A DNA stretch of 43,618 nt, filler included, from Catajapyx aquilonaris (lineage: Eukaryota): assembly GCA_000934665.2 (NCBI GenBank). It is 2 parts of 2 records of this genome, joined end to end, with 100 filler letters (N's around TTAATTAATTAA, not from the genome) between each part and the next. Parts side by side here need not be neighbours in the genome. Positions count along the whole stretch, not along the records: positions 21,865 to 43,618 come from JYFJ02005985.1; 1 more part is not named here. One strand, written 5' to 3'. Position 1 is the stretch's first letter. The number at the start of each line of letters is the position of its first letter. The translations under genes were made by a program, and so were the position numbers. The notes below the pieces were generated by a model, which was not told the DNA's origin, ran no database searches, and was given only the letters and a program-made list of their open reading frames with translations. Positions 14,711 through 43,618 of the stretch are shown piece by piece.

Positions 14711-14713
14711 TTG

Positions 14714-14754
<41 letters not shown>

Positions 14755-14863: not shown

Positions 14864-14906
<43 letters not shown>
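14711..14906. repeat. (ATT/GTT)n microsatellite
   Basis: Directly visible. Confidence 0.98.

Positions 14907-14907
<1 letters not shown>

Positions 14908-15248: not shown

Positions 15249-15249
<1 letters not shown>

Positions 15250-15316
<67 letters not shown>
15250..15316. repeat. Pure (ATT)n microsatellite
   Basis: Directly visible. Confidence 0.98.
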
Positions 15317-15382
15317 CTTAGATTTAAAAAACAGGCTTACACTGGGAGACTCAATCATTCTATAATAGTGTACATAGGCCTA

Positions 15383-21764: not shown

Positions 21765-21864
21765 NNNNNNNNNNNNNNNNNNNNNNNNNNNNNNNNNNNN
21801 NNNNNNNNTTAATTAATTAANNNNNNNNNNNNNNNNNNNNNNNNNNNNNNNNNNNNNNNNNNNN
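21765..21864. other. Assembly gap: 44 N + TTAATTAATTAA + 44 N (artificial six-frame-stop linker)
   Basis: Symmetric 100-base block; TTAATTAATTAA gives stops in all six frames. Confidence 0.95.
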
Positions 21865-22043: not shown

Positions 22044-22199
22044 GAGACCAACAGCGATGCCTTTGTAAACATCATCAGACCCGGTGCAAGAAAAATATTC
22101 AGACAGTTAACTGCCAACGTGGTTAACAAGGTTCAGAGGAAAATATCACTGGAAGACCTCGCAGGAAGCCAATATCTGAAGAAATCGTTTGATTTGTAA
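22044..22199 (+). pseudogene. takeout/JHBP-like copy A0: orphan, 5'-truncated last exon
   Basis: ETNSDAFVNIIRPGARKIFRQLTANVVNKVQRKISLEDLAGSQYLKKSFDL* is homologous to exon 6 of the neighbours. The acceptor and first codons are missing; AATAAA at 22230. Upstream exons may be lost in the gap. Confidence 0.8.
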
Positions 22200-22840
22200 A
22201 TGTGTTGTGTCATCCCAGTTTATGGTTGGAATAAATAATGTAGCTGATACATAATAATAATCATAATTCAATTTTGGTTTCGTGATATTTGTTGAGACGT
22301 TTCAAGTCATTGGATTTTCAAAGATGCCCAAGACACATTTACCATAACCAAGGAAGAATGTCCCTCTATTTCGATTGCAATGTAGTGCATAACAGGATCA
22401 CAATAACTTGAGAAAAGACATGTATTCCAGCGAAACAACAATAGCAAAATTAGTGCCTCACGATAAATATTTTTCTCTCATGACCTCGACTGAACCTACT
22501 TCGTCATTGTCTTACTATAGTCGTCAGTTCGTCACACCTTCGGAAAAACCTGCAAGCAGAAACCGTGCCATGAACTATATACTACTAGTGAGGTGAATGT
22601 AATGCCTCCTGTGGGTCTAATGACACATTCTTATGAATGAATTTTATTGTGACCTTGGAGTGCCCTTGGTTACATATCAAGCTCATCTGTATGCCGATAT
22701 AGTTAATTCCACCAAGGCTCACTGGTAGAATGCAAATTATACTTTTTTGTTATATAATTCATGTTATAAAACGTATTCTGAAAGGCACACTGTGCTGAAT
22801 AAAAAAGTCGCATTCGTCATTTGTCCACAGAACTTAGCAG

Positions 22841-24220
22841 ATGAAGTCCTTACTCGTCTTGTGTCTTTTGGGAAGTGCATGTGCCATCACACTTGGTGAG
22901 ATTCTCTTAAGATATGGAAAGATTTAAAATATTTGCTACTTAATACCATAGGCTACTATTCCAGATGAGGCGTACAAGAGATGCAAGAATGTGACTCGTC
23001 AAGAATTAGAGCCATGTTTGGTACAACTCATCAACGACCTTCGACCACTCATTAGAACAGGTATTTGCATCAGGGTGAATTTATTTAAAAATTAAGTAGG
23101 CCTATAATTATGAGTAAGTTGCCGCGATTTGTATACGATAGCAGTGCAGCAGTCAATGTAACGACAAATAGGCTTTTCCCTCCTGGCACGGATATAAAGG
23201 ATATCATACTTTTGAATATGAGCATGAACTTGCAACATTCTAGGCATCCCTGAGCTGGGGATCAAAGGTAACACAATAAACTCCGAGTCAGTGGCGTACG
23301 ACGTGAGAGAAGGCCCTAACAATTATGTGGCCATTTCATACGACGGGCTGGTTGTCAGGGGCTTTCATGACTTCGAAATGAAGTACCTGAAGTGAGCTTC
23401 ATTTTTGAAATTTACTATTTTGTAATGGACATGCGCATCATAATCGTTGTGTTCTTTGTGCAGGGTGGACTACGATGAGAAGGTGGCGGCGTGGTCCGTC
23501 GTTATTCCGAAATTGTACGGCACTTCTCAGTACATCATGGACGCAAAAATTCTGTACTTTCCACTCTATGGAAATGGAACAGTTTTCGTTGACACAGGTG
23601 AAGAAACAGTGCACAACAACTGTATGCGGGAAAATAATATTACAATAAATACGCATGTATTTTTTTGCAGATAATTTTCAGTTTAATGGCATCTCCAAGT
23701 TGGATGTTAAGAAGATCAACGGTGACTGGCGTCTCCAGGAGGTTGACACAGACATGACGTTTGCGTACGAAAAGACTCACTTCAAATTCAGCAACCTGTG
23801 CGATGGGAATGATGCCATGGGTATGCAAACTAAAGAGTAATGCTCCAGCTTTCAACAATTAACAGAATTCAGCCATTCTTCAAAAGCAGCAATCAGGGGG
23901 AAGGAATGGAGTTCAAATCTTACATATGACAACACGGGGGAAAAGATTAGTGGAGTACCAGCAGGGAACTCCGAGTGACCCACACGAACACTAAGAGAGA
24001 CACCAGGACACTTACTGACAAGCACTGTGATTCATTTGCAGAAGCAGCAGCCTCTCAATTTGTGGATACCAACGTGGATGCTCTGACCAACATGATGAGA
24101 CCCGGTGCAAGAAAGGCATTCAGACAGTTAACTGCAAATATGGTCAACCATGTTCTAAGCAAAATATCACTGGAAGACTTGGCAGGAAGCCAATACCTGA
24201 AGGAAGCATTTGGGTTGTAG
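22841..24220 (+). CDS. Secreted takeout/JHBP-family protein, copy A1 (253 aa, 6 exons)
   Basis: Exons 22841-22895, 22965-23060, 23244-23391, 23464-23597, 23671-23820 and 24042-24220, all GT-AG, phases 1,1,2,1,1, open frame. Signal peptide MKSLLVLCLLGSACA; C-x10-C; P-L-I-x-x-GIPELGI; QYIMDAKILYFPLYGNG; FSNLCDGN. AATAAA at 24292. Confidence 0.9.
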
Positions 24221-24491
24221 AATGCTTTGTGTCATTCCAGTATGTCTGAACTAACTACGGAGACATAATGTGTCATTCCAGTTTATCGCTAAATAAATGT
24301 GGGTAATTTAAAAAGTGAGTTTTGGGCTCTTGATGTTCATATTGTGCTCTGTATAAGATATAATAAATTTATGATCTATATCATTAGAAATGTGTGCAAA
24401 TATGACTTTCCCAAGCTTCTTTGGTATTATGAAGCCCTATACACATTAGTTTGTCTATAGTGATTCTCCTTATCAGCTCGTCTCTATTTGA

Positions 24492-24605
24492 CAAGAGTTA
24501 CCTGTGCCGTTAACGACCGTTTACGTAACGCTGATTATGCAACGGCACCTGATACGTATGTAAACCGGATCGAAGGATGACCATTCGCACCTTTGCCTCT
24601 GAGCC
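24492..24605 (+). promoter_or_regulatory. Conserved subfamily-A proximal promoter block (also upstream of A3 and A4) with bZIP-type sites
   Basis: Alignable with about 26125-26234 and 27691-27788; contains TTACGTAA (24521-24528) and TTATGCAA (24535-24542). Confidence 0.55.
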
Positions 24606-25922
24606 ATGCAGTACAAGATCTTTGCATTCCTGCTTTTCATTACAGGCAGCGTCTTCGGCATCACATTAGGTAAGGTCTGATTATGAAATGGCATTTACAT
24701 GTGTTATTATAACAGTAATTATATTTCCAGATGAGGCGTACAAGCGATGCAAGCATGTGACGCGAGAGGAATTGGAGCCATGTGTGGTGCAACTCATCAA
24801 CGACCTTCGACCACTCATTCGAAAAGGTATTTAAATCAGTGCGAAATAAAATGATATTACCAGTGCGATTTTGTTTGAAACTACACCTTTGTAACAAGGT
24901 GTTTATAACTGAAATACTGTGTATGAATTTGTTGAAAGATTAAATTATAAACTCCAGATGGTGCATGTTTGTCATATTCTCCCTCCTGGCACGCGCATAA
25001 AAGATGTCGCAATTTTTAAAAAAATCTTATTTAACATGACTGTGATTACTTTTTCCAGGCATCCCAGAGTTGGGCATAAAAGATGGCAAAATAAATCCAA
25101 CTCCATTAACCTGGGAAAACAGGGAAGGACCCAACAGTTATGTGGTGTCTTCCTTCGACCATGCAGTTGTCAGAGGCTTTCTTGATTTCGATATGAAGTA
25201 CCTCAAGTATGTACAGTACGGTATTATAAAAATGCACAATGTTGTAACGCACATCATAATTATAGTATTGTGCTCTTTGTGCAGGGTGGACTACGATGAA
25301 AAGGTCGCGGCCTGGTCAGTGCTTATTCCGAAACCACAATCAGTCTCCCAGTACATTATGGATGCCAAAGTGCTCTTTTTTCCACTCTATGGAAATGGAA
25401 CGGCTTGGATAAGCGGAGGTGAAGGAATTGTCTTCAAAATATAATCTGGAAACTAATAATGTTTTGCATTTATTTATTCAGAGAATGTTCAGCTGAATGG
25501 CATCTCCAAGTTGGATGTCCAGAAGATCAACGGAGACTGGCGTCTGCAGGAGGTTGACACTGATTTGACCTTTGCCTATGAAAAATTCAACTTCAAATTT
25601 AGCAACCTGTGCGATGGAAATGAAGCCATGGGTAAACGCTCTACATAGTAATACTCGAGGTTTTAAACACCTAGTGAGCCCACGTGTATACCAGGAAGAT
25701 AAATTAATTATTATTATCAACAAATGTTTTGCTTCATTTGCAGAAGCAGCAGCCTCTCAATTCATGAAGACTAATGTTGATGCTCTGGTCAATATGCTCA
25801 GGCCGGGAACAAGAAAAATATTCAGACGGATCACTGGAGACATGGTCAACAAGGTTCTGAGCAAAATCTCACTGGAAGACATAGCAGGGAGCCAATATCT
25901 TAAGAACTCGTTTAATTTGTAG
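24606..25922 (+). CDS. takeout/JHBP-family protein, copy A2 (256 aa)
   Basis: Exons 24606-24669, 24731-24826, 25059-25206, 25285-25418, 25482-25631 and 25744-25922; open frame; AATAAA at 25953. Confidence 0.9.
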
Positions 25923-26234
25923 TTATTTTCTTTCATATCTGTTTATGGCTGAAATAAATATGGGCAATTAAAAGTTGAATTTTGGGCTCAAGTACATTCC
26001 AGCACAACACATAAAAACCGTTTGGAACAGATTTGCAATATTCTGTGTAATTTCCCTGATATGTGTAAAATTTTATTTTGAATTTCAACACTGACCTTTA
26101 TGACTTGCTGTGCTTCTGATCGACCAAGGGTTTCTTGTGGCATTAACGACTGTTTATGTAACGCTCGTTATGCAATACCTCGTGATATGTACACCTGATC
26201 GAAGGATGACCATTCTCACCTTTGCCTCTGAGTC

Positions 26235-27347
26235 ATGCAGTACAAGTTCTTTGCATTCCTGCTCTGCATTGCAGGCAGCGTCTTCGGCATCACACTAGGT
26301 CAGGTTAAATATTGATAAGTAGACTGTAAACTGTGAATTTAACAGCAATTGCATTTCCAGATGAGGCGTACAAGCGATGTAATGAGTCGTGAGGAATTGG
26401 AGCCATGTCTGGTGCAACTCATCAACGACCTTCGACCACTCATTCGAACAGGTATTTGCATCAGCCCGAAAATTATACATGTGGTTGTCGCTGTTTCTAC
26501 GTATATCGATGTTTCTTCTTGAATAAGACAAACTTAAAAAGGGGTAAACCAGCACTCAAGTGTATACACTGGAGTATCAAAATTTTACCAAGGAATACCA
26601 AGGGTGTAGAGGTGTCATTGAATTGCCCTTGGTATCACGAGAAAGGTTCCTTGGTGGGGTCACACCGGGTCACAAAAACGGTGTGGATGACCAAAGCATG
26701 TGAATAGTTTTAAAAAGTAGTAAGCATAATATTACCTACATTCTACAAGACAACATTCAATTGGGACGGTTGTAACAACTTCCTTGGGGTCGGTTGTAAC
26801 ATGTAACAAATTACCCTAAACCTAGACCCTAGACCCTGATTAAGTGCTATTTTGCGACACTTGGCTGCTCCAATATGCTTATAGGAGAGGATATAAAAGA
26901 CTATATACCTAACACCAAGGATTGTGGACAGGATGCCACAATAATGTATTCCTGATCTACCACTCGTCTAACCAACTTCACCCTAACTTGAATAGCAGCA
27001 ATAGTGGAGAAGGAAGGGAGTTCAAATCGTACGTACTGTACTAACTTACATAAAGCAGAAAGTTTGTTGGTTTTCTTTGTTTGTATTAATATGCCCCAGC
27101 TACCTAACGCACTTTCAGACTGCTGAGAGTATGGAAATTTACCACACTGACAAACATTTCATTTGCAGAAGCAGCAGCCTCTCAGTTTTTGGAGTCTAAT
27201 GCCGATGCCCTGATCAACATGCTCACATCTAGTGCAAGAAAGGGATTCAAACAGCTCACCGGAAACATGCTCAACAAAGTTCAGAGCAAAATATCGCTGG
27301 AAGACCTCGCAGGAAGCAAATATCTGAAGAAATCGTTTGATTTGTAA
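26235..27347 (+). pseudogene. takeout/JHBP-like pseudogene A3
   Basis: Exon 1 (26235-26298) is intact. Exon 2 (26361-26451) is 91 rather than 96 nt, giving TGA at 26390-26392. Exons 3-5 are absent. Exon 6 (27169-27347) is intact. Confidence 0.9.
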
Positions 27348-27788
27348 ATGTGTAAATATTGATATAAGTTCCTGCACCTTAAATTTCACGTAATAAAAAT
27401 GATGCATTCTGTAACAACAAGACAGTATTCCTCTGATTCATCTTGCTTTCAGCTCCTCTACACAGCTAATATTCTTACAATTTATTGGATGCGTAAGTAG
27501 CTAGTCATCAACTTGTTCATCACGCCAAATGGAAATTACTTGCTCACCAATAATAATTAATGAAATAATTTTTTCTTTAGTAAAGAACCTAAAACTTAGA
27601 GAAAGTCAGCAGTCTCAGGATCACACCCTGTAATAATCTGCTCACTACTACCAGCGACTATCGTGACTTTGAATGACCGCTAGTCTTTGCCAAGAGTTAC
27701 TTGTGACGCTAACGATTGGTTACGCAACGCTCATGAAGAGATGTAAACTGGATCGGAAGATGACCATTCACACATTTGCCTCTGAGCC

Positions 27789-29166
27789 ATGCAGTACAAG
27801 ATATTTGCATTACTGCTCTGCATTGCAGGCAGTGTTTCCAGCATCACACTAGGTCAGGTCAGACGGACATTACAAAGGTGAAATTCGTGTGTGGTATTAA
27901 CAGTAATTGTTTTTTCAGATGATGCGTACAAGCGATGCAAGAAGGTGACGCGAGAGGAATTGGAGCCATGTCTGGTGCAACTCATCAACGACCTTCGACC
28001 ACTCATTAGAGAAGGTATTTAAATCAATGCGAACTAACAGAATATGCGAAGTATATAGTAAGTTGTAGTGTAGTTTTAGGCTACTGCAGACCTGTTGGTG
28101 TCAGTTGATCAATTTCCTCCCTGGATTGCAGAGAATGAATGTTACTTTTAAAATAAATTCAGTAAACGGTAACCTTCCAGGCATACCTGAGTTGGGCATC
28201 ACAGGTAACAAAATAAATTCAGAAACATTGAACCACGACGTGAGAGAAGGACCTAACAATTATGTGGTGTTAATCTTCGACAACATGTTTGTCAGAGGGT
28301 TTCACGACTTCGAGATGAAGTACCTCAGGTACGAAACACTTTCAATCTAATGTGATTTATTGTAATCAACATCAATAATATTATTGTACTCCTTGTGAGC
28401 AGGTTGGACTACGATGATAAGGTGGCGGCTTGGTCCGTGCTCTTTCCGAAACTTCAAGCAGTTTCCCAGTACATCATGGACGCAAAAGTCCTCTACTTTC
28501 CACTCTATGGAAATGGAACCGCTTTCATGAGTGCAGGTGAAGAAATAGGTCACACACTGTAATTGGGATACTCATAATGTGTATACATAATTATGTATTT
28601 ATTCAGACAATTATCAAATGAATGGCATCTCCAAGCTGGATATTCAGAAGATCAACGGGGACTGGCGTCTGCAGGAGACAGACACCGAAATGACCTTTGC
28701 CTACGAAAAGTCCGACTTCAAATATACCAACTTGTGCGATGGAAATGAAGCCATGGGTATGATATCCTTACAGTATAATATTCCAAGGTTCAAAACATTA
28801 TAGACCTCACTCAAATTTATATATATAGCAGCATGTATCCGGAACAAAATTAAATTAGTTGGTGATCCCAAGGGGAAATTGGGGGTTTTGAAGTGTGGTG
28901 AGAAACCAATGAATCCAAAGTGAACCCACACGAACACGAATAAAAACACTATTACTCATATTAAGCACTACTGTGATTCATTTGCAGAAACAGCAGCCTC
29001 TCAGTTCATGGAGTCCAACACAGATTCCCTGGTCAACTTGATCAGACCTGCTATAAGAAAATTATTCAGAGAGTTCACTGGAAACATGGTGAACAAGGTT
29101 CTGAGCAAAATATCACTGGAAGATCTGGCAGGAAGCCAATATCTGAAGAAAGCATTTGAGTTGTAA
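27789..29166 (+). CDS. takeout/JHBP-family protein, copy A4 (256 aa)
   Basis: Exons 27789-27852, 27919-28014, 28181-28328, 28403-28536, 28607-28756 and 28988-29166; open frame; AATAAA at 29197. Confidence 0.9.
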
Positions 29167-29290
29167 ATGTTTTGTATCATCCCAGTTTATCCCTAAAATA
29201 AATATAGGATATTCATAATTCAATTTCATGGCTCGTGATTTCGAGTATATGAGTCAGGTCTATGCTATAGCATAGGCCTGATTCATCCAG

Positions 29291-29692
29291 ATGACAAAGT
29301 GCGAGATTGTCGTGCTCCCTTGTTGTTGTTTTTTAGCTTTCCAGTCTCGGTTGGTGAATACATCAACAATGAGGAATACTGATACACTTACTTTACTGTA
29401 TATTTTGTCAGTCTGATGATGTGGAAGAGTAAAAGAACAGTGGGTTGGGTGTCGTTGATTGGTTGTCTCCAACACTGTCTCCTCGATATTTTCCCAATCA
29501 AGTAAGTAATTGCAAAGATAGAAGGCATGTATAAAGGAATATTGATATAAGTACCAGCACCTAATCTTCCACGTAATAAAATAATATAAATATGCTATAT
29601 GCATTGTCTAAATGGAATATTCTACCACTGACTGATTTTATTTTCAGCTCCACTGCATAGCAGGAAGGCTATTATTTCAATTTATTGCATGT
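29291..29692 (+). pseudogene. Possible remnant of an unrelated small multi-exon gene
   Basis: Three GT-AG bounded, phase-0 segments: 29291-29353 (MTKCEIVVLPCCCFLAFQSRL), 29412-29501 (in-frame TAA at 29430) and 29648-29692. The third segment has a paralogue at 27453-27492. Confidence 0.35.
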
Positions 29693-29789
29693 GTAAGTGG
29701 TTAATCATCAACCTGTTCACGCCAGGTGGAAATTACTTTCTCACAATTCATATAAATAAATGAAATGAATGACTCTGGGGGTCCTTATG

Positions 29790-30170
29790 GGAAAAGTTGA
29801 ACCAGATAGATTTCGATGAAACTTGGTCAGATGATAGACCTCGACCTTACGGGCAATATTGTTCCGAAGGCTGAAGAAATCTACCGTGCCGTTTGGTCGC
29901 TAGAGGCGCTCAAAATCGTAATTTCAGGTAGCTCATGTAGGGCTCGTTTTCACTTATGTTGTAGAGTTTCATGAGCTAAGTCGAATGAGCCCTGTGGAGA
30001 TTTTCTGTGACAAACAATTTGGCAGATAGAATCTAGAAACGCCCAAAGGGGCCACGGCTTTCCAACACCCCGCCACTCTTCCACTCCAACCGCCACCAAC
30101 CGACTAAGGAGCACAACTTTCAAACTCAGTTGTGCGTCTACAGGCCAAATGGTTTGTCACAAAAAACTGA
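29790..30170. mobile_element. Non-autonomous transposon fragment (Helentron/DINE-like internal motifs), approximate bounds
   Basis: Motifs GATTTCGATGAAACTTGGT and CGCTAGAGGCGCT resemble such elements. It abuts and truncates the A4b exon fragment. Termini not identified. Confidence 0.35.
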
Positions 30171-30174
30171 ATGT

Positions 30175-30280
30175 TATCTGAAGGACGCTCGTTTGATTTG
30201 TAGACATATTTATTATATTTCAATGGATGGCTGAAATAAACATGGGAATTTGATAATTATTTAATTTTGGACTCTTGATA
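30175..30280 (+). pseudogene. takeout/JHBP-like fragment A4b: final codons of exon 6 plus 3' UTR
   Basis: TATCTGAAGGACGCTCGTTTGATTTGTAG matches TATCTGAAGAAATCGTTTGATTTGTAA. It is followed by ATGGCTGAAATAAA.ATGGG as in the A2 3' UTR. Confidence 0.75.
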
Positions 30281-30284
30281 TTAG

Positions 30285-30495
30285 TGTGGCGTATTTACAA
30301 TATCAGCATATTGTGAAGTCCCTCAGATGGCAGCAGTGGCGTCTGGGTATGGACCTGGGGAAGTGCTCTTTTGTGAGTGAGTCGTGTGACGGACTGGAAG
30401 CGGGCTGGTCTAATAAATGGTTTGGTCCGAACCTGTAACATTATTGGACCACGGCCACTACCCTGTGTCACATTTTGGGGTCGGAAGGGATGACA
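30285..30495 (+). mobile_element. Possible short solo LTR
   Basis: TGTGGC...ATGACA ends, internal AATAAA at about 30412, imperfect 4-bp flanks TTAG/TGAG. Confidence 0.35.
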
Positions 30496-30717
30496 TGAGG
30501 AGGTCAACCTCGTAATATTTGTTTGTTAAAGACAATTCCAGCTTAATGTGCGTCCAAGCTGGATTTGGAAGACCTTCGGAGGTCACCTTCAATTACCCTC
30601 TATACACTGTATCCATGAAGCTAATGACGATTGTTTTCAACCAGATAACTTGTTTTTGGTACGACAGTAAACAGAGTCAATGCCCATCATGCCATCAACC
30701 TCTTACACATCGTCCCA

Positions 30718-30724
30718 TATAAAA
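30718..30724 (+). promoter_or_regulatory. TATA box of copy A5
   Basis: TATAAAA 67 nt upstream of the ATG at 30785. Confidence 0.55.
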
Positions 30725-30784
30725 ACGGCACCTTATTTGCGCTCCCTTTTGAACAACAACCATTTTCTCTCTGGACACCCAACC

Positions 30785-32252
30785 ATGCAGACAAAGTCAT
30801 TTGCAGTATTTTTCTGGCTCTTTGCCAGCGTATTTTCCATTACTCTTGGTGAGATTAAGTTCAACTAGAAGTGAAGAAATGTGTTTAAAGCCTGTTTCAT
30901 AAATAAATGATCGCGCGATCCGGCAGCAGCGACAGAATGCGGCGATGAATGCCGCATGCTGCCGCTGCGTTGGAATGTGGCGATGGGTCGCGTGTTCAAT
31001 TCATATAAAAAAACGGATGCGCGACGAGGCGTGCGCGGCGCGCTGTCACGTGACTCCATCCTGCTTCTCCCATTGGCTCCAGCTCCTGCGATGAGTCCCG
31101 ACGCACATTCAATATCAAACCGGCCGGATGTGGTGCGACGCGATGAGTTCCAGCGACCGTCGCGCCTGAATTTATTTATGAATTGGACGGACGCGCGACG
31201 GTCAAGCCAGATCTGCGACCCACAGCAGATCGCCGTCGCAGAGTTTATTTATGAAACGGGCTTTACTTTCAGATGAAGCTTACAACCGTTGCAGAAATGT
31301 TGATCGTGAAGGATTGGAACCTTGTGTGGTGCAGCTTATCAACGAACTTGTACCACTCATTCGAACAGGTATTTATTGTTTATTTATTTTAACATATAAT
31401 TTTGCTTAATTTGTTAAGGTAACACTATTTCTTGCTGTTGTAGGAATCCCGGAGTTGGGAATCAAAGGTGATAAATTCTACCCTGAACACTTAGAGTTCA
31501 ACATGAGAAACGGGCCTCACAATTACTTCGTGTCATCATTCGACAACTCTGTGGTCAGGGGTTATCACGATTTCCAGATGGAATATCTGAAGTACGTACA
31601 TATTGGCAATACATTACAATCATATAATAAGGATTATTTTCACAGTAGCTATTAATTTTTCAGAGTGGACTACAAGAACAAGGTGGCAGCATGGTCGATC
31701 GAGTTCCCTAAAATAATTTTCACTTCCCAGTACATTATGGATGCGAATGTGCTTTACTTTCCAATATATGGAAATGGAACGGTTTGGTACATTATAGGTG
31801 AGTATAAGGTGTTATTTCAATCTGAAAAGTAATATGCCTACAATATTAAAAACATTTGAAATGTAGACAATATGCGGTTCAATGGTATCTCCAAACTGGA
31901 TGTTGAGAAAATCAATGGAAATTGGCGACTTCAGGAGGTTGATACTGACTTGACCTTCTCTTACAAAAATGTTGGTGCAAAATTTACTAATCTGTATGAT
32001 GGAAATGAGGGTTTAGGTAAGTATTGTATGGCTAATTTGCATACTAAAAGAATGTAAATTAATTTTGATCAATCCACAGAAATAGCAGCCTCCAAATTTT
32101 TGGACTCCAACGTTGATGCCATGGTGAACATGATGAGACCAGATATACACAAAATGTTCAGACAATTTACTAACAACGTGGTGAACAAAGTTCTGAGCAA
32201 AATATCACTGGAGGACATAGCTGGACATGAGTACTTGAGAGAGTGGTTTTAG
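30785..32252 (+). CDS. takeout/JHBP-family protein, copy A5 (254 aa; divergent A member)
   Basis: Exons 30785-30848, 31273-31368, 31444-31591, 31664-31797, 31867-32016 and 32080-32252. It stops two codons before the paralogous stop (TAG ATG TAG); AATAAA at 32296. Confidence 0.87.
30886..31265. mobile_element. GC-rich MITE in intron 1 of A5
   Basis: 22-bp inverted ends TAAAGCC(T/C)GTTTCATAAATAAA plus a second internal inverted pair (about 30995-31026 and 31158-31188). Absent from the paralogous introns. Confidence 0.85.
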
Positions 32253-32408
32253 ATGTAGAACAAAACACCTAAGAATTGTGTACAAATGAAATGGAAATAA
32301 ATTGCTTTTTATTTTTATGTTTTGTTGTCCATAAATAATTTCCAAACCTAACATAACGTCGTACTAACAAGTAAGTCCATACTCACCCACATTTAGCACA
32401 TACTTAGT

Positions 32409-32522
32409 AATTAGTTCCGGCCAATTTATCCTGGTCTTGAAGCAACCCTTCACGCTACACCTCACCGTAGGGTCTGTGCGAAGGGTTGCTTCAAGACCAG
32501 GATAAAGTGGCAGAAACTAATT
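32409..32522. mobile_element. Hairpin MITE, copy 1
   Basis: Inner IR TTTATCCTGGTCTTGAAGCAACCCTTC / GAAGGGTTGCTTCAAGACCAGGATAAA; outer AATTAGTT...AACTAATT. Confidence 0.8.
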
Positions 32523-32894
32523 GATTCCGATAGCACATTACGCAAAGGCCTACATAATACTTTCCGTATTTTATGCAATTCAATTACGTAGTGAAAAACG
32601 ACAAAATATTTATGAGAAAATTGTAATTGCGACAACCCCACCTAACTTGTTAAAAAAAGGGTCGTAATCCTCCGATGCATTCAAATTGAGTAATTATTGC
32701 AGCCCTTATCACCGGGTGATATAACATGGTGCACATGTCACCTGGTTACATAAAATATTCCTCGTCAACCGACGTCACAAAAGTGTAGGAAAACTAGTTT
32801 CTGCCACCGTATTTTAAGTTTTCATCACTTCGAGGCATACTTAAATCCAAGTAGTGCGAGAGAGCAAAGGATAGTTGGTATTGCAGATAGGAAG

Positions 32895-34656
32895 ATGAAG
32901 GTCCTTCTGGTTCTGAGCTTCCTCTTGGCCACCACATTCGCCATCACTTTAGGTGAACATAGTCATTACCTTTGTTCTGACATGTTCTAACGATATTTAT
33001 TTTTGGTTAGATGAGGTCTTTGAGAGGTGCCAGGCTGTTCTGCGAGAGGATCTGGAGCCATGCCTGATCAACCTGATTAACGATATGAAGCCATTGATTT
33101 ATGAAGGTAATGAATTTTATTATTCATATGGTGTAAGGTCTTGATAATGTACAGTCGGCTGCAAAAACTTTAGGCCACTTTATCCTGGTCTTGAAGCAAC
33201 CCTTCGCACACACACACTTCCTCAGCGTGGGGCATATGCGAAGGGTTGCTTCAAGACCAGGATAAAGTGGCAATCAAAAAGTTTTTGCAGTAGACTGTAC
33301 AGCACAGGAATTAATTAATATTAATTGATCAATTACAAAGAGTTGGTGGCACAATAATCCTTCACATATTATTCTTAAAACTATGTCTGATAATTAAAAT
33401 CCGGAAAAAATGACTTTTCATCTGAAAATTGTATGGATATCCTGGTTCGTCTATGTCTGTATAGCAAAGAAAAATGCAAACGATATTATTATTTAACATG
33501 TACTGTACCTCAATTGCACCAGAGTGCTGATGTAATGGCAAGATTGTTCTACGCAAGAGCGTAAAAAGTACCAATCGTAACTCTTAATCTTGCAATAAGT
33601 TATAGGCGACAACTAGTAGTAGCACTTCACCTTGAACAGGAAGTTGCCCCGTCTCAACCTTGATTATGCTTTTTATACTATTGTTAACGCACAAGTCATG
33701 TAATCATTACCATTCGTCTCAGGTGATTAAATTTTTAATCACACTCTTCTTAGTCAAATATACGATCTAATAGTAGGATCATTGGAAAGTGAAAATTTGA
33801 AGTGTATTTTTTTTAATGTATAGGAATTCCTGAGCTGGGTTTGGAACCTTTTGATGTCATAGAAGGAGATCCTATGGAATTTGACAACAAACATGGAAGC
33901 AGCTACTTGAGAGCAACCCTTCATGAAGGACACATCAAGGGATTTGAAGACTTTGAAATGAAAGATTTGGAGTAAGTCGTTTTTGTCTTCAACTAAACAA
34001 TGCGATTAACTGGCTATGTTGCAGAATTGATTACGACAAGCATATTGCCCGCTGGACAGTCCGTGTTCCCCAAGTTCTTCAAACAGCCAGATATTCCCTT
34101 GATGCCAAAGTAGCCTACTTTCCACTCCATGGAAATGGGACCTGCTGGCATCGAGTTGGTAAGGCATGTCTTGACCTGTCATCAAGAACAGAAGTAGTGA
34201 TGTGATGGTTTCAGAAAATCTGCTGATGACCGGCCTGACTAAGTTTGGTGTCGAGAAAATAAATGGCCAGTTGCGTATACAGGAAGTGGACACGGTGATA
34301 GATTTCACCTATGAGAAGGTGGCTCTTAGATTCAATAATCTTTACAACGGTGACCCCATAATGCGTGAGTATTTGATAAACTCGGGACTGCTAGCATAAT
34401 TCCTCATTCTTCACCTAGATGGCGCATCATCCTACTGCCACTATCAGTGTTTTTAATGGCGATTTATGTTTCAGAGGGAGCAGCTACTGTCTTCTTGGAC
34501 ACAAATGCTGACCTCCTGGTCAATGAGATGCGGCCGTCGGCAAAGAAGGTTTTCCGTCAAATCACAGGAAACACCATCAATAAGGTCTTGGCCAGAATTA
34601 AGCTGGATGACCTGGCCGGAAGCGAGTTCATCAGGAAATCGTTTAAACTTGAATAA
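32895..34656 (+). CDS. takeout/JHBP-family protein, copy B1 (255 aa)
   Basis: Exons 32895-32952, 33011-33106, 33824-33971, 34025-34158, 34215-34364 and 34475-34656. Contains GIPELGLEPFD and FNNLYNGD, the closest matches here to canonical takeout motifs. Confidence 0.9.
33152..33297. mobile_element. Hairpin MITE, copy 2 (intron 2 of B1), TA-flanked
   Basis: TA|CAGTCGGCTGCAAAAACTTT...AAAGTTTTTGCAGTAGACTG|TA encloses the same inner IR. Confidence 0.88.
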
Positions 34657-35670
34657 GATCATTGATTAAAGCAGACCCCGTTTAATCGACTCAGTACATT
34701 GAAATACTCGTATACGTTTGTTAACAATGACCTGTGGAGACTATATGTACAGCTAACGTCTCAATATGGTCATTTTTGACATTTCAAATATGTTTTCATT
34801 TCTTGCAAAATAATACACCTGCCGGTATGTGTATATTATAGCCAATCAATATATGGTACTTCATTTCAAAATTTCATGTACGATTGCAATTTTAAACAGT
34901 CACCTATCAATTATGACTATTAAAATTTTTAGCCTCAACGAAAATAATTTTGACGGACTTTGTTTATCACATGTTTGTCCATTTTAAACGGCAGAAAAAA
35001 TCTACTCAATAACAATGGGTGTCAGAATCACCATTCTGCACTTTCATAATACACACTCTCGTGTTGAATATATTGTATATTTCCTATTGCATTCTTTACT
35101 CAGCTTAAAACCTGTTCTGATGTGCAATAGCTCAATAAACAAGCAAATAGCAGACTTTTCATGCTTTTGATATTTTTGTAAGCGTATATTACCATTTTAG
35201 TCAACATGCACATGCTGACCTTGAACCAATTATTCTTGTCAGATTTTCCTCTCATTATTCGCCTTAGGCTGTCTATGCCAACCTGATCTGCAAGTGTCAT
35301 CACGCACGCATAATACTATAGAGAGGTGGCATCTAGAAGAATATAAAAGGCTATATTGTGCATAAATTAAGAAACAAATTATTAAGAGGTAAAAATACCA
35401 ACCTTTCAAGGTCAGTCTGATATTGCGTGTATCTCCAGCTTTCAGGAATACACCAGTATGTAGATATAGGTCGCTCAAACTGATTACAGTATATACTACT
35501 TATGCGTTGTTACAACTAGGAAATTGTACACAAACATGAAGGTCATGCAGTATTTCCTAGGTTGCTGACACCTTGTTTGTCGAAAGTTCATTTAAGTCGT
35601 CATTTCATGAGCAGCTTGGATAATATTATTATCAGTTTCGTTTATGAAATACATACTTATGTGCTATGTA

Positions 35671-35801
35671 CTATGGGGCTCAAATTCGCCACTTTATCCT
35701 GGTCTTGAAGCAACCATTCGCACAGGTCCCATGGTGAGGATGTGTGTAAAGGTTTGCTTCAAGACCAGGATAAAGAGGCCGAAACAATTTGAGCCACATA
35801 G
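35671..35801. mobile_element. Hairpin MITE, copy 3, TA-flanked
   Basis: TA|CTATGGGGCTCAAATT...AATTTGAGCCACATAG|TA encloses the same inner IR; loop orientation is opposite to copy 1. Confidence 0.85.
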
Positions 35802-36039
35802 TACGGTACAATAATGGTCTTCAAGCAGTCATTATGGGGACATCTGATATATTATATGATTTTTTTTTTCATTTTCCTACGAGGGACATGTCATTCTCAC
35901 ATAGTAAGTTACTGCACATGCGTGCTCCTTCGCATACGTGAAACCAGCCTGAAACAGGCAGGTTTCTGCGACTGACCATATCTCAAGTTTTGGGGCCACT
36001 GCACTTCCGTCAAGGCCTTTCCTCAAAGGGACTCTATAC

Positions 36040-36125
36040 AAGGGACAAACAAAAAAATAAGGAAAACAGGTATTGGAAGGTAGGCTGGTCCAAACCAGAC
36101 TCAGTTGGCATTTGGAAGCGGAACA
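36040..36125 (+). promoter_or_regulatory. Conserved TATA-less promoter/5' UTR of B2 (repeated before B3, B4, B5) with arthropod Inr TCAGTT
   Basis: GGAAAACAGGTATTG...AGACTCAGTT.G.ATTTGGAAGCGGAA.A(A)TG is conserved four times. TCAGTT at 36101, 38072, 40144 and 42540. Confidence 0.65.
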
Positions 36126-37672
36126 ATGAAGGTCCTGTTGGTTTTCGTCTGCCTTTTGGCCACCACACTCTCCATCACATTGGGTAAGGTTTTCTAATTA
36201 AACAATATATTTTCAATTAAAATATTATATCATCATGAGTAATGAGCATTTTTGGGGGCCAGATGAGGCTTTTCAGAGGTGCAAGAATGTGCTGAGGGAG
36301 GACCTGGAACCATGTCTGATCAACCTGATCAACGAGATGAGACCCTTGATTCATGAAGGTAATGTGCTACTGTTCCAAATGTGGAATTCTAGAAGTTCAT
36401 AGATAAAAATTCCTAAAATTTGTTGAATGCCAAGTGTCAACCTACAAGGCAACATTCACTGGATAAGACCTGAACAAACCGGATTTTGATGCAATGCCTG
36501 GTTTTTTGTTAACCTAATATCATATTTGCAATACTATCTTGAAGCAACAGTATACGTCTTGCTCAAACAAGTCTGATCATGAGAAACCACATTTTGAAGT
36601 AAGTTAAATTGCCCTGTTAGTATGCCATTAAAAGTGGGCGTATCATATTGGAAAATTTGTAGTTTCGACTAAAAGTTTTTTTTAGTAAATAAGAGTTTAT
36701 ATTAAGACAGTGTGTACGTAAATATAGGTGAGTAGTCCTTGACCTTGGGAACCCAGACATGCCTTGCATCTTGGTAGACTTGATGGTATGTGTTGTTTTT
36801 TTGTCAGGTGTTTGTCTCAAATTATAAGTTTTCAAACCTGTTATTGCAACGTTTTTAATGCTATTTTTAATTTTAGGAATTCCTGCGCTGGGACTTAAGG
36901 CTATTGACATCGATTCGGAATCACTGCACATTGACGAAAAGCATGGAAACAGCTACGTGAAAGCAAGTTATGACAATGGAAAAGTTAGGGGATTCAACGA
37001 GTTTGAAATGAAGAATTTAGAGTGAGTCTTTTTAATGTGTGTTTTTTTTGGTATGAAACTATTAATAGTTTGTTACAGGATTGATTACGACAAGAGGATT
37101 GCTCGCTGGACAGTTCGAATTCCCCAAATGCTGTTTACTAGCAGATACTTTATGGACGCCAAAATTGCCTACTTTCCACTCCATGGAAATGGCACATGCT
37201 GGCAAAAAGTTGGTAAGTCCACTGGTGTCACTCTGAAGACAACAGGTTTTGGTCGAGGTTTCGGGTTGTTTCAGACAATGTGATGTTGAGTGGCGTGTCC
37301 AAGTTTGGTGTCGAGAAAATAAATGGAGAGTTGCACGTACAAGAAGTGGACACTGATCTGGATTTCAACTATGAGAAAATTTCGATGCGAATGAATAACC
37401 TTTTCAACGGGGATCCCATACTGCGTAAGAGAGTCTTACGAATTGAAATAATGTGTGTTGTTTCTTACTCCATTATGTTACTTTCAGAGGAAGCGGCGAC
37501 GGTCTTCTTGGACTCGAACGCTGACCTTCTGATCAATGAGATGCGACCATCGACAAAGAAATTTTTCCGGAAAGTGACTGGAAATGTTGTCAACAAGGTC
37601 TTGGCCAAAATCAAGCTGGATGATGTAGCTGGAAGCGAGCACATCAGAAAAGCTTTCAACCTTGGAGAATAA
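36126..37672 (+). CDS. takeout/JHBP-family protein, copy B2 (255 aa)
   Basis: Exons 36126-36183, 36263-36358, 36877-37021, 37079-37212, 37275-37424 and 37488-37672; open frame. Confidence 0.9.
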
Positions 37673-38096
37673 GTTGCTCTACGATTCAAACTTGAGAAGC
37701 ACTTTTATGTTGCTTTGATTTTTACAAATATACCTGTAATTGTTTAATCCACTCAACATACTGTCGTATTCTAAAAATAAACTTAGAAAGCTTACCATAC
37801 ACGTAGGTGCGGTAGTGTCTTGGACAATATTTGAGTAATACGTGTAAGTTGTTTTTTGCTCAATAAATTCTGGAAAACGACCTACTGTCATCCTATGTTT
37901 CTCAAATGTAAGCGCAAATGCTTTTAATTATAATTTAATTGACTCAAATTTTAGGGACATTTCACTCCCTCAAGGCCTCTTCTGGCACATATAGTCTCTT
38001 ATTCATGTACTATGCAAGTGACAAAAAATCAGGAAAACAGGTATTGCAGGGCAGGCTGGTCCAAACCAGACTCAGTTGGCATTTGGAAGCGGAATA

Positions 38097-39678
38097 ATGA
38101 AGGTCCTGTTGGTTTTCGTCTGCCTGTTGGCCACCACACTAGCCATCACATTAGGTAAGGTGTACCTACCAATTGAAAACTAAAATTAAACCTATGTAAC
38201 AATTGGCATTGTTGTAATCGGATTTATTTTGGTCCAGATGAGGCCTTCCAGAGGTGCAAGGGAATTCGGAGGGAGGACCTGGAGCCATGTCTGATCAACC
38301 TGATCAACGAGATGAGACCCTTGATCCACGAAGGTAATGTGGGACCAGTTGCCAAAAAATGTATAGATATGTGCATTAAGTCTACCTACAACTTTTATAA
38401 CATGCCTGCGTTAGTATTCTCAAGCAAAGCGTGCGTTTTCTCAAACCAGTCTGAACCTGAGAAACCAGATTCTGAAGTGAGTTATTGGTCTGCTTCACTC
38501 CATTGCAGCTCCTTATATGTAAAAGTAGGCCTGTAATTTTTAGCTTGTGATTTTGCAATGTTTTGTGTGGTCAGTATAGACTATGTATAGACTATGCCGG
38601 TATAGACGATGTGGTCTTGTTCCTTGTTAACCTTGATGTGTACTGATCTTTGGAGCCGTTTTATTTGTATACTTTTTACGCAGCTATCACAACGTATACC
38701 TATCCTATACCTATACCTAGCCTATACCTATACCTATCCTATACCTATACCTATACCTATACCTATACCTATCCTGTACCTGCTATGTGATGAAACTATT
38801 TGCTTCAGGAATTCCTGAGCTGGGCCTAATTGGCATTGATATCGATGCGGAACCAATGAACTTTGACAGAAAGCACGGAAGCAGCTATGTGAAAGCAAGT
38901 TATGAACAGATGAAAATCAAGGGATTCAACGAGTTCGAAATGAAGGACTTAGAGTGAGTTTTAAGAAAATCTTTTTGTTGCGCAACTGATAACAACTGTT
39001 CGTTATAGGATTGACTACGACAAGAGAATTGCCCGCTGGACAGTTCTAATCCCCCAAGTGCTGTTAACAAGCAGGTACTTCATGGACGCCAAAATTGCCT
39101 ACTTTCCACTCCATGGAAACGGGACATGTTGGCATAAAGCAGGTGAGGAATTGAAGTTTTGTATGCAAACCGCTCAATGTTGACCAGTATATTTCCAAAA
39201 ACACCATTCTTTTAGACAACTTTATGATAAGCGGCGTGTCCAAGTTTGGAGTCGAGAAAATAAATGGAGAGTTGCGTCTGCAGGAAGTGGACACGGATAT
39301 GGATTTCAACTATGGAAAACTGTCGTTGAGAATGAATAACCTCTTCAACGGGGATCCCATACTGCGTAAGATTGTCTATAATTATAGAAAATTGTAATAG
39401 TATGGCACAGTTCATATACCGTATGTCACTCTTCTGTAGGTTGGAGAAGAGAGCCACAATAGATGATTCCTTATTATGTAATATTTCTTTCAGAGGAAGC
39501 GGCTTCTGTTTTCTTGGACTCGAACGCTGATCTACTGATAGAGGAGATGCGACCACAGACAAAGAAGGTTTTCCGTCAAATGACTGGAAACACTATCAAC
39601 AAAGTCTTGGCCAGAATCAAGCTGGATGACCTGGCTGGAAGCGAACACATCAGAAAAGCTTTCAACCTTCGAGACTGA
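38097..39678 (+). CDS. takeout/JHBP-family protein, copy B3 (255 aa)
   Basis: Exons 38097-38154, 38238-38333, 38809-38953, 39009-39142, 39216-39365 and 39494-39678; open frame. Confidence 0.9.
38696..38780. repeat. (CCTATA)n hexanucleotide microsatellite in intron 2 of B3
   Basis: Directly visible; explains the PIPIPI pseudo-ORF. Confidence 0.95.
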
Positions 39679-40168
39679 ATTGCTCTGCGATTCATATCAA
39701 GATATTGGTACGAGGTTTACAAATATGTTTAATCCACTAATCACAGTGAAATGCATCTTTTAACAAGAACTGTGGAGGCTTAACACACGGACAGGAAACT
39801 GTACAATATATTTTGTTAATTTTTTTGGTCAATAAATTTTGATAAATGACCTTCTGACGTGATATTTCGCATATCTGTAAGACTTCAAGATAGTGGTCAC
39901 ATGTCATTAGCCAGACCATGCTCAGTATCTCGAACGCCATTTGCATTTTTCGAATTTCTTCATAAAAAATTTGCCGCCTAAACCGCCAAGAACAACAAAC
40001 AGGCTTCAGCGACTGTCTTAAGTTTTGGGGCCATTGCTCCTCCCTCAAGGTCTCTTCTGGCACATATAGGCTCTCAATGTGCTATGCACGTGACAAAAAA
40101 TCCGGAAAACAGGTATTGGAAGGCAGACTTGTCCAAGCAAGACTCAGTTAGCATTTGGAAGCGGAACA

Positions 40169-41708
40169 ATGAAGGTCCTGATGGTTTTCGTCTTCCTATT
40201 GGCCACCACACTCGCCATCACATTGGGTAAGGCGTGACAATAATGTAAATAGCCTATCTATAATATTAAAATTCTTCGTTGTTTGTGTAAGCATTCTGAT
40301 TTGTCCCCTATTGTTGTTACCGCGACGCCTTCAATTGGCCCGCGTTCTACGCATGCGCAATGGGGTGGAGACAGCACCTCTGGTGGGTGGAAGTAGGAAC
40401 GATCCATTCTATCGCAACGGCTGGATGGTCTACTTCGCTCCCTCCTGTTCCACCCACCCACCCCTGTATTGTTGCACAACAGCTATGTTGTTGACAGGCA
40501 GTAAACAGTTCGATCTTGGAACATCATGAGGTGTTCTGATAATCCGGCCGTTCAAAGGCCATAGCGATTAATAATATGGCGTACACCCCCATAGGTCGCA
40601 GGCCTAGAAAAAATCGAGAGAAGCTAAGGTTTTTTCTAGTATTTCTAACTACGATATGATTCTCAGTAATATTTTTTGGGGGGTCAGATGAGGCTTTTCA
40701 GAAGTGCAAAGGTGTGCTGAGGGAGGACCTGGAGCCATGTCTGATCAACCTGATCAACGAGATGAGACCCTTGATTCATGAAGGTAATGCATTACCTGCT
40801 GTGTAAGAGTAATGCCAACCTTTACATGCGTTAATTTTAGGAATTCCTGAGCTGGGCCTCCAGGCTGTTGACATTGAGACGGAAACACAGTACATTGACG
40901 AAAATCATGGAAGCAGCTATGTGAAAGCAAGTTATGGAAGTGGAAAATTTAAGGGATTCAACGAGTTTGAAATGAAAAATTTAGAGTGAGTTTTTGAATT
41001 ATTTTTTTGGCCACTGTACTATTAACCGTTTGTTATAGGATTGACTATGACAAGAGGATTGCCCGCTGGACAGCTCTAGTCCCCCAAGTGCTATTCACAG
41101 GCAGATACTTTATGGATGCCAAAGTTGCCTACTTTCCACTCCATGGGAACGGAACATGTTGGCATAAAGCAGGTGAGGAATATTGTCGTAGTTCCATTCA
41201 CAAATCACAGCTTCCATAGGGAAAAAGGAGAGTGATGATTGGTGAATGGGAATGTTGACCTAATATTGTGACAGACCCAGCAGCATATTTTCAATAATGC
41301 TATTGTTTCAGACAACTTTCTGATGACAGGCGTGTCCAAGCTTGGAGTGGAGAAAATAAATGGAGAGTTGCGTCTGCAGGAAGTGGACACGGATTTGAAT
41401 TTCAACTACAAGAAAGCTTCGATTCGAATGAATAATCTTTTTAACGGGGATACCATACTGCGTAAGATAGAGAAGACAGTCCATGTCTTTTTTTATCATA
41501 ATTATTGGAAATATTTCTTTCAGAGGAAGCGGCGTCTGTTTTCTTGGACTCGAACGTCGATCTACTGGTCAATGAGATGCGACCATCAGTAAGGAAGATT
41601 TTCGGTCAAGTGATTCAAGACACTGTCAACAAGGTATTGGCCAGAATCAAGTTTGATGACTTGGCTGGAAGCGAGTACCTCAGAAAATCATTCAACCTTC
41701 AAGACTGA
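40169..41708 (+). CDS. takeout/JHBP-family protein, copy B4 (255 aa)
   Basis: Exons 40169-40226, 40688-40783, 40841-40985, 41039-41172, 41312-41461 and 41524-41708; open frame. Confidence 0.9.
40257..40639 (+). mobile_element. Non-autonomous Helitron-like insertion in intron 1 of B4
   Basis: A|TCTATAATATTAAAA 5' end, subterminal degenerate hairpin, CTAG|T 3' end, no TSD. Paralogous introns are only about 80 bp. Confidence 0.75.
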
Positions 41709-42105
41709 GTTGCTCTGCGATTCATCTCAAACAGTCAGTCGTGTAACTATCGCCACGAGTTTTACATATTACTGTTTAATCCATTCACCACAGTGATACA
41801 CGTATCCTACCAAGCTTACTACGAGTAATCGAGCATACTGTATACAAGTATATGCAAGTAGCGTATACTGCACAATTTTGGACATGTTGTTTTTTTGCTC
41901 AATAAATTTTGGAAAACAACCAGCTCACTGACATGAATCCGACATTTCGCATATCTCTTTTTAGTAGGCTATTTACCACCCATAACTCATTTTCGACCAA
42001 AACTGCACTTACCCTTTTCCCCCTCCCTCTTCCTACCCCCAGCCCATTTCCCCCTTCAAAATCTATCCTAGCAAACTCATATTTTAGACCTTTTTTATCC
42101 ATCAG

Positions 42106-42371
42106 AAAAAGTCTTATAGCACGGCTCTGCCCGTCCGTCCTTCCGTCTGTGGACAGGTATCAGGTATCATGGGGTAGGAGGAAGGAGGGGGGAAAGGCGG
42201 TCTGAGGAGAATGGACGGTCAGGGATAGGGGGTAGTGGGGGGAGGGGGCAGCCAGGGGAAAGTGGCGGATAGAGTGAACCCGGAACCCGAAAATCGAAAA
42301 AGTCTTATAGCACAACTCTGTCTGTCTGATACCTGTCCACAGACAGACAGAGCCGCTCTGTAAGACTTTTT
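42106..42371. mobile_element. DINE/HINE-like or MITE element with (GTCY)n and about 50-bp inverted ends
   Basis: AAAAAGTCTTATAGCACGGCTCTG..(CCGT)n..TGTGGACAGGTATCAG (42106-42163) is inverted at 42326-42371, with a partial direct copy at about 42297. Confidence 0.6.
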
Positions 42372-42563
42372 TTCTCGAAAAAGTTTAAAGCAGGCTTTTG
42401 CGACTGATGACTAAAGTTTTAGGGCCATTGCCCCTCCCTCAAGGCCTTTTCTGGCACACATAGTCTCTTCATGTACTATGCAGGTGACAAAAAAAATCAG
42501 GAAAACAGGTATTGCAAGGCAGACTTATCCAAACAAGACTCAGTTGGAATTTGGAAGCGGAAC

Positions 42564-43618
42564 ATGAAGGTCCTGTTGGTTTTCGTCTGCCTATTGGCCA
42601 CCACACTTGCCATCACATTGGGTAAGGTGTGTTTCAATTGAAATGAAAATAGCTAACTGTAACTGGCGAATTCTGTGTAACAATGGGAATATATTTTGGG
42701 CCAGACGAGGCTTTCCAGAGGTGCAAGGGAATTCAGAGGGAGGACCTGGAGCCATGTCTGATCAACCTGATCAACGAAATGAGACCACTGATCCATGAAG
42801 GTAAAATGTATTACGCGGAATCACAAATGTCTCGACTTGAATTTGTGCATTAAGTCTAGCTACAACTTTCGTAACAGCCTATAGTATTCTCGAGTAACGT
42901 GCATTTTCTCAAACCAGTCTGAACTTTAAAAACCAGATTCTGAAGTGAGTTATTGGTCTGCTTCTTTCCACTGCAGCCTTATATGCAAAAGTAGAAGTTT
43001 AATAAATTTATTGCCTTAGAACCTTACCTTACCTTCGAACTTTTTACCTTCTTACCTCAGAACAATTTTGCAATGTTTTTTTGCAGTTAGTTAGGTGATA
43101 TAATTTTTCATTAGTTTTAAAAATTATTCATTCATTCTGTCTACATGCATTCTGTCTAGCCTCGAATCTAGGTGACCAGTTTTTGACTGTGGTCACGATG
43201 TGGGCTTGCCCCTTGTTAACCTTGATGACAACTAGAGTCTGACGGGTACTTTCATTTGGGCGCTTTTTATGCAGCTGTCACATGTAGTTTTTGAGCCTAT
43301 ATCTGCTGTGTGAAAGTAATGCCAATTTTACATACGTTAATAATTATTTCAGGAATTCCTGAGCTGGGTCTCCAAGCTGTTGAGATCGTGTCGGAACCAA
43401 TGAACTTTGAAAGAAAACACGGAAGCAGCTATGTGAAAGCAAGTTATGGAAGTGGGAAATTCAATGGATTCAATGAGTTTGAAATGAAGGATTTAGAGTA
43501 AGTTTAAACCAATCATTTTTAGGTACGAAACTTTTAACTGGGTTTTTACAGGATTGACTATGACAAGAGAATTGCTCGCTGGACAGTTCGAATCCCTCGA
43601 CTGCTGTTCACAGGAAGA
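42564..43618 (+). CDS. takeout/JHBP-family protein, copy B5 (partial, runs off window)
   Basis: Exons 42564-42621, 42705-42800, 43353-43497 and 43552-end; frame open so far. Confidence 0.88.

Follow-up and report, generated by a model that had tools for sequence, protein, structure and literature searches.

The stretch of DNA analysed here (the window, 43,618 nucleotides of the Catajapyx aquilonaris genome, assembly GCA_000934665.2) consists of two contigs, C3618 and C3619. The right contig (C3619, JYFJ02005985.1, positions 21865–43618) is open at both ends and packed with plus-strand genes of the takeout family. The array is real, expressed and spliced. Its products are takeout-type proteins with a single TULIP domain, not lepidopteran JHBPs, and it is one of many such clusters in a genome whose takeout expansion is larger than the published counts with which it was compared (the highest being 76). 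In the predicted β-strands, hydrophobic sites change faster than polar ones; judging from this sequence pattern, the inner face of the sheet probably lines the cavity, and the paralogues probably differ in cargo range. The family is known and its expansion is unusually large; an undescribed clade, a conserved C-terminal tail and the contrast between cavity and surface go beyond the routine, and no new mechanism is shown.

Splice-site-based modelling gives eight uninterrupted six-exon genes (G1, G2 and G4–G9) encoding 253–256 amino acids. Their coding exons measure 55–64, 96, 145–148, 134, 150 and 173–185 nucleotides, the intron phases are 1, 1, 2, 1, 1, and all 40 introns are of the GT-AG type. 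The six-exon architecture, the internal exon sizes and the single strand had been described in the initial annotation and are reproduced by the splice-site models of these eight genes. Its count of at least 12 loci stands for eight intact genes and reaches 12 only if the truncated G10, the pseudogene G3, the orphan G0 and a 100-bp remnant are added. Neither the minus strand nor the left contig gave any match to the exon profiles, and the initial 10 kb of two contigs of neighbouring size gave none either, so the array is not a product of chance. The genes and their remains are as follows, X1 being the transcript run described below.

22044–22200, plus strand: G0, orphan 3' part of exon 6 with neither acceptor nor upstream exons.
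22841–24220, plus strand: G1, 253 amino acids; exons 22841–22895, 22965–23060, 23244–23391, 23464–23597, 23671–23820 and 24042–24220; Pfam JHBP on exons 4–6.
24606–25922, plus strand: G2, 256 amino acids; exons 24606–24669, 24731–24826, 25059–25206, 25285–25418, 25482–25631 and 25744–25922; introns 2–5 spliced in X1 contigs.
26235–27347, plus strand: G3, pseudogene; exon 1 26235–26298, exon 2 26361–26451 (91 nucleotides, with a 5-nucleotide deletion and an early stop), exons 3–5 missing, exon 6 27169–27347.
27789–29166, plus strand: G4, 256 amino acids; exons 27789–27852, 27919–28014, 28181–28328, 28403–28536, 28607–28756 and 28988–29166; introns 4 and 5 spliced.
30175–30274, plus strand: degenerate remnant of an exon-6 end and 3' untranslated region, 73% over 100 nucleotides to 25896–25989 (end of G2), E 5e-7.
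30785–32252, plus strand: G5, 254 amino acids; exons 30785–30848, 31273–31368, 31444–31591, 31664–31797, 31867–32016 and 32080–32252.
32895–34656, plus strand: G6, 255 amino acids; exons 32895–32952, 33011–33106, 33824–33971, 34025–34158, 34215–34364 and 34475–34656; 3' untranslated region to about 35153; all five introns spliced as predicted.
36126–37672, plus strand: G7, 255 amino acids; exons 36126–36183, 36263–36358, 36877–37021, 37079–37212, 37275–37424 and 37488–37672.
38097–39678, plus strand: G8, 255 amino acids; exons 38097–38154, 38238–38333, 38809–38953, 39009–39142, 39216–39365 and 39494–39678.
40169–41708, plus strand: G9, 255 amino acids; exons 40169–40226, 40688–40783, 40841–40985, 41039–41172, 41312–41461 and 41524–41708.
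42564–43618, plus strand: G10, truncated within exon 4 where the contig stops; exons 42564–42621, 42705–42800, 43353–43497 and 43552 to the end.

The array probably continues on contig C6065, because the latter begins with an exon-6 tail 90% like that of G8.

Transcript evidence comes from one public run, X1 (contigs, one study), aligned to positions 22700–42000 at 90% likeness. Of its 98 aligned contigs, 33 match at 90–95%, so part of them derive from paralogues. The contigs confirm 15 of 28 joints and agree with the splice junctions proposed earlier: all five predicted introns of G6 are spliced, at one depth value and with a 1277-nucleotide contig reaching 35153, and four of the five of G2 (introns 2–5) as well as introns 4 and 5 of G4 are joined at the predicted bases. 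The X1 alignment holds no joint for G1 as modelled, G5 or G7–G9; its low cover of G7–G9 is uninformative on expression, and contig depth cannot rank the genes. One X1 contig joins exon 2 of the pseudogene G3 to its exon 6 (26451–27169, GT-AG, 27 letters on the short side) and may derive from a paralogue. The phases of exons 2 and 6 match, and an intact exon 2 copy would yield an in-frame mini-protein made of the leader and two helical ends; contig C3108 carries another locus for which only exons 2 and 6 were found.

Matches to the Pfam JHBP profile were obtained for five of 12 open reading frame (ORF) pieces of the window, one of them above the cut-off: the exon 5–6 ORF of G7 (37217–37669) scores 48.6 bits against a PF06585 cut-off of 29.2. 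Exons 3–6 of G7 align in order to profile positions 48–95, 98–137, 149–190 and 193–237, each alone below the cut-off, and exon 2 has no match in either of two genes tested. A profile built from the eight spliced proteins finds the takeout-like protein P0005 at E 6e-30, which itself scores 221 bits with Pfam JHBP and matches takeout 3e8t at E 4e-12. Searching PDB sequences with pieces of the clade returned nothing significant (9ink at E 1.2).

The sequence chosen for structure prediction is a natural paralogue ORF from contig C7197 (exons 4–6 including two introns), not a full-length window protein. Its model computed from 20 alignment rows, takeout-like proteins among them, has a predicted local distance difference test (pLDDT) score of 68.4, which is low mainly over both introns. 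The top Foldseek matches are 3e8t (E 3e-6) and 9ink (E 2e-5). Structural alignment gives a VIA Z of 10.6 (rmsd 2.7, 144 aligned) with 3e8t, 10.0 (rmsd 3.0, 146 aligned) with 9ink and 6.3 (rmsd 3.9, 137 aligned) with JHBP 2rck, and both takeouts rank ahead of JHBP, Der p 7 and CETP. The takeout/JHBP (TULIP) identity put forward in the initial annotation thus holds by both the Pfam and the Foldseek comparison.

Hallmarks of takeouts are two N-terminal cysteines in all members and motif 2 (NlFNg...Flnen) (PMC6160090). The N-terminal Cys pair is present in all eight window genes and in 83 of 83 full-length models from the genome. A loose pattern finds the motif-2 core, which spans the exon 5/6 junction and aligns with external takeouts, in 78 of 88 models. 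An NGT sequon occurs in the fully visible exon 4 of each of the eight genes, and both the Cys pair and the sequon are as described earlier. By a crude hydropathy check, nine of nine exons 1 encode a basic residue and a hydrophobic N-terminal stretch. Bona fide lepidopteran JHBPs carry a second disulfide that links the C-terminal helix to the sheet (bioRxiv 10.64898/2026.06.25.734463). All eight window proteins have zero or one Cys after residue 60 (at least two are found in only 9 of 88 models), so this bond cannot form. The extra unpaired Cys varies by subclade, being located in exon 5 in G1, G2 and G4, just after NGT in G6–G9 and nowhere in G5, and might permit dimers or covalent adducts.

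In the genome as a whole, one exon 6 used as query gave 90 matches among 116 candidates, and a Pfam profile scan, in which 150 of 238 candidates were scored, added further contigs. Across 38 contigs or contig parts there are 143 locus fragments; exon 6 is present in 120 of them and exon 4 in 117. A few fragments are split or double-counted, hence an estimate of about 115–120 loci. With two mis-joined models and one duplicate removed, 88 unique models on 28 contigs are stop-free from exon 2 or 3 to exon 6, exon 1 having been modelled only within the window. Grouped by amino-acid identity, they make up 79 clusters at a threshold of 90% and 64 at one of 85%, and the window genes are mutually 44–81% identical. 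A second subclade of 14 models, also tandem, has exons 3 and 4 fused (285 nucleotides) and one intron fewer (C211, C2736, C8493, C8784, C1858 and C360; L042–L053).

Tandem takeout expansion is already known, soil hexapods included, and the initial annotation was right not to present clustering as new. Published counts are 76 JHBP-domain genes for Spodoptera frugiperda (PMC11354444, which also cites 41 for Bombyx and 47 for Dendrolimus), 30 takeout-like genes in seven clusters in Drosophila (bioRxiv 10.64898/2026.06.25.734463), 25 in a termite (PMC10209217), and 3–39 across arthropods, with 5–11 in crustaceans (PMC12256323). A single JHBP cluster listed in Table S9 of PMC6938034 counts 40 genes in Folsomia, 23 in Orchesella and 20 in Campodea, with a row total of 138.

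A quick IQ-TREE phylogeny (97 rows, SH-aLRT only, midpoint root) separates every model of this genome from the eight external rows with a support of 100. The clade may be specific to this lineage, as proposed earlier; an outgroup as thin as eight rows without springtail or dipluran sequences does not prove it. A gene on C171 of this genome branches beside the crustacean takeout-like proteins P0005 and P0018. Of the two subclades in the window, one (G1, G2, G4 and G5) has relatives on six further contigs, and the other (G6–G9) was found complete only in the window. The long helix is followed by a C-terminal tail LAGxxY/F in 86 of 88 models, and the hairpin NG[TS] sequon is found in 52 of 55 core-clade models and in 7 of the 33 others.

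HMMER over 1.84 billion representatives returned 15 proteins. The first three are unnamed single-exon fragments of the clade from short ENA contigs; after these come more distant proteins, generic takeouts, and the three full-length ones scanned are clear JHBP-domain proteins. Protein searches, this one included, found no full-length close relative of the clade, and the absence of a one-to-one orthologue among these representatives agrees with the initial annotation. Weak negatives come from a word-indexed protein search with the G7 ORF (0 of 11 candidates related) and from an exon-4 profile run against longer proteins (7999 scored; a single match, E 0.27, to another Pfam family); in metagenome contig scans, 0 of 163 and 0 of 337 pattern matches were confirmed. 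A literature search found no description of the clade, and neither JHBP nor takeout occurs in the main text of the Folsomia genome paper or of the Orchesella one, although their supplements may list these families. The JHBP domain is reported as arthropod-only among 22 species (PMC12256323). Four external JHBP-like fragments (P0008, P0009, P0010 and P0015) have insertions at the position of intron 5 here, which points to an early origin of this intron position within the family.

The window genes are under purifying selection overall: of their 28 pairs, 15 have an unsaturated dS, and in these the ratio of nonsynonymous to synonymous rates (dN/dS) is 0.14–0.35. For the site analysis, hydrophobic sites were those hydrophobic in 39 rows outside the tested subclades, and strands were the six predicted in exons 4–5, taken from the model; the strand contrast was first seen by eye and afterwards tested on these model-derived strands. 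Mean omega in the predicted strands is 0.68 at 27 hydrophobic sites and 0.22 at 24 polar ones (p 0.0003), with the same direction in three of three subclades. A model-free strand count over 17 independent close pairs gives a pN/pS (the corresponding ratio of proportions) of 0.84 at hydrophobic and 0.13 at polar sites (Fisher p 4e-8). Buried sites usually evolve more slowly than exposed ones, and the strand pattern is the reverse. Hydrophobic sites in exon 2, where the contrast is absent, and in the C-terminal tail stay slow (0.15–0.16), so hydrophobic codons in general do not explain the strand contrast. Between subclades the site rates are correlated (rho 0.30–0.42), and their periodicity is significant in only one of five segments, the long helix (p 0.013). 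Recombination was not detected within subclade A by a PHI-like test of low power (p 0.46). Earlier work cited in PMC6160090 reported positive selection in takeout lineages.

Several points weigh against a takeout barrel whose variable lining sorts cargo. The term "cavity-facing" was assigned by hydropathy, not from coordinates. Over the whole protein the contrast between hydrophobic and polar sites is not significant (p 0.33), nor is it in exon 3 or the exon-6 helices. A comparison of M1a and M2a, in a simplified implementation of our own with one irregular model omitted, gives mixed evidence for an omega above 1: the test is significant for subclade A (p 3e-4) and borderline for C (p 0.02), while subclade D shows no effect (p 0.92). 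The pN/pS of 0.84, being below 1, fits relaxed constraint as well as adaptation. The first model of the C7197 ORF, computed from clade rows alone, had a pLDDT of 37.5 and no significant structural match, and the fold evidence from the second is partly circular, its alignment having contained takeout-like proteins. Finally, distant Drosophila takeouts replace one another in courtship (PMC6160090), which speaks against strict ligand specialisation.

Takeout/JHBP barrels are described as enclosing a hydrophobic ligand outside cells and then delivering it (PMC5507252). The arrangement that would best account for the observations is a birth-and-death tandem array of takeout-type single-TULIP genes, one block of a genome-wide radiation. 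Each protein would be secreted, closed by the N-terminal disulfide and probably N-glycosylated at the hairpin NGT, and would hold inside its barrel an elongated lipophilic molecule, a terpenoid, fatty acid or carotenoid like those of solved takeouts. Change among duplicates would fall on the inner lining, with the outer sheet face, the N-terminal helix and the C-terminal tail conserved. The members would then make up a repertoire, carriers or scavengers that differ in cargo range, and not one hormone transporter. The ligand-carrier role named in the initial annotation is one that we infer, now backed by the substitution pattern of cavity and surface.

A possible but rather unlikely alternative is that these proteins sequester in bulk or act as a barrier in gut, haemolymph or a gland secretion, where they would mop up dietary or soil lipophilics or package the animal's own secretions, with breadth and dose mattering more than specificity. 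A pN/pS near but below 1 fits a promiscuous pocket, JHBP-domain clusters are enlarged in soil hexapods too (Folsomia, Orchesella and Campodea; PMC6938034), and a Drosophila triple mutant is more terpenoid-sensitive (bioRxiv 10.64898/2026.06.25.734463). However, sequestration overlaps with the carrier repertoire favoured above and differs from it only in site of action and specificity.

We consider it unlikely that the array is a chemosensory repertoire shuttling odorants and tastants in sensillar lymph, in the role of insect odorant-binding proteins. The size of this tandem family and the variability of its presumed pocket are what one would expect of such a repertoire. Roughly half of the 30 takeout-like genes of Drosophila show enrichment in chemosensory organs, and one of the proteins binds linear terpenoids, but deletion mutants are reported as unimpaired in terpenoid perception (bioRxiv 10.64898/2026.06.25.734463). 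A bolder and quite doubtful reading would make takeouts the lineage's main small-molecule recognition repertoire: more than 100 secreted barrels with a variable cavity, a constant outer face and a lineage-specific C-terminal helix docking on one shared receptor or uptake partner, that is, a variable-pocket, constant-handle system for chemosensation or chemical defence instead of insect-type odorant-binding proteins.

It is very unlikely that the copy number is due mainly to neutral duplication or to haplotypes left uncollapsed in a fragmented assembly. The assembly does comprise 20,583 contigs, pseudogene debris is common, and C8424, C7583 and C10927 match the G1–G5 region at 92–97% over 0.4–3.3 kb, introns included, and may be alleles or recent duplicates. 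Yet the 88 models still fall into the 79 and 64 clusters given above, four G2-like models exceed two alleles, and the window genes combine limited mutual identity with low dN/dS. Strict transport of juvenile hormone or methyl farnesoate, which the Pfam name and a methyl farnesoate-binding shrimp JHBP-domain protein (PMC12256323) speak for, is the most improbable reading, since the second, C-terminal disulfide cannot form in any of the eight window proteins, the model resembles takeout structures more closely than it does JHBP, and about 100 diverging pockets are not needed for one hormone.

Why arthropods keep many takeout genes is called an unanswered question in PMC6160090. The carrier repertoire favoured here bears on it in that the radiation is young: about 90 paralogues are intact and can be aligned, which makes it possible to name the sites that differ between close neighbours and so to ask directly about cargo differences. 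The contrast between cavity and surface is sequence evidence on whether takeout copies differ in cargo. Furthermore, the genes seem to be missing from public protein collections, so annotation-based comparisons of family size may undercount.

Two further features of the window are these.

21765–21864, no strand assigned: linker of Ns with TTAATTAATTAA between C3618 and C3619, seen in the sequence.
30886–31263, no strand assigned: young mobile element of 378 bp with terminal inverted repeats of ~22 bp, in intron 1 of G5; seven genome matches (itself included) at 99–100%.

The sizes of C3618 (21764) and C3619 (21754) fall between those of C3617 (21771) and C3620 (21742), an order that looks size-sorted. 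The join thus seems artificial, and the two halves are probably not neighbours in the genome. The 378-bp element ends nine nucleotides ahead of the exon 2 acceptor of G5, is missing in the duplicate gene on C8424, and could disturb G5 splicing. A BIR-like remnant, at first suspected in the G5 intron ORF, was rejected: Pfam found none, and the ORF is the short mobile element. A palindromic element of roughly 100 bp has three copies in and around G6 (32409–32524, 33169–33271 and 35668–35804). In the left contig, a 1.8-kb stretch (16544–18340) equals its own reverse complement at 94.7% and is probably a fold-back or inverted-repeat element, and long ATT/GTT microsatellites lie at about 14230–15320; the left contig ORFs tested against Pfam gave no meaningful match.

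With insect takeouts, such as Takeout 1 of Epiphyas postvittana (3e8t) and the locust beta-carotene-binding yellow protein (9ink), members of PF06585, the Catajapyx proteins have in common a single TULIP barrel, a hydrophobic leader, two N-terminal cysteines, a motif-2-like stretch, a length of about 250 amino acids and clustered genes. Identity to 3e8t and 9ink in structural alignments is only 13–20%, and the C-terminal tail LAGxxY/F was not seen in the external takeouts aligned. The best full-length single-domain matches to the window profile are the crustacean takeout-like proteins P0005 and P0018 of Macrobrachium (E 6e-30), which are about 21–28% identical to the clade ORF. The lepidopteran haemolymph JHBPs (2rck, 3a1z) have the same fold, but their second disulfide is absent here; JHBPs are regarded as a Lepidoptera-specific branch (bioRxiv 10.64898/2026.06.25.734463). 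Tandem growth, clusters whose members group by descent, pseudogenes and mostly purifying selection are common to this array and the JHBP expansions of Spodoptera frugiperda, Drosophila and soil hexapods. Unlike the members of Drosophila clusters, for which about 30% identity is reported, neighbours in the window are 44–81% identical, and the Catajapyx radiation is therefore younger and still turning over.

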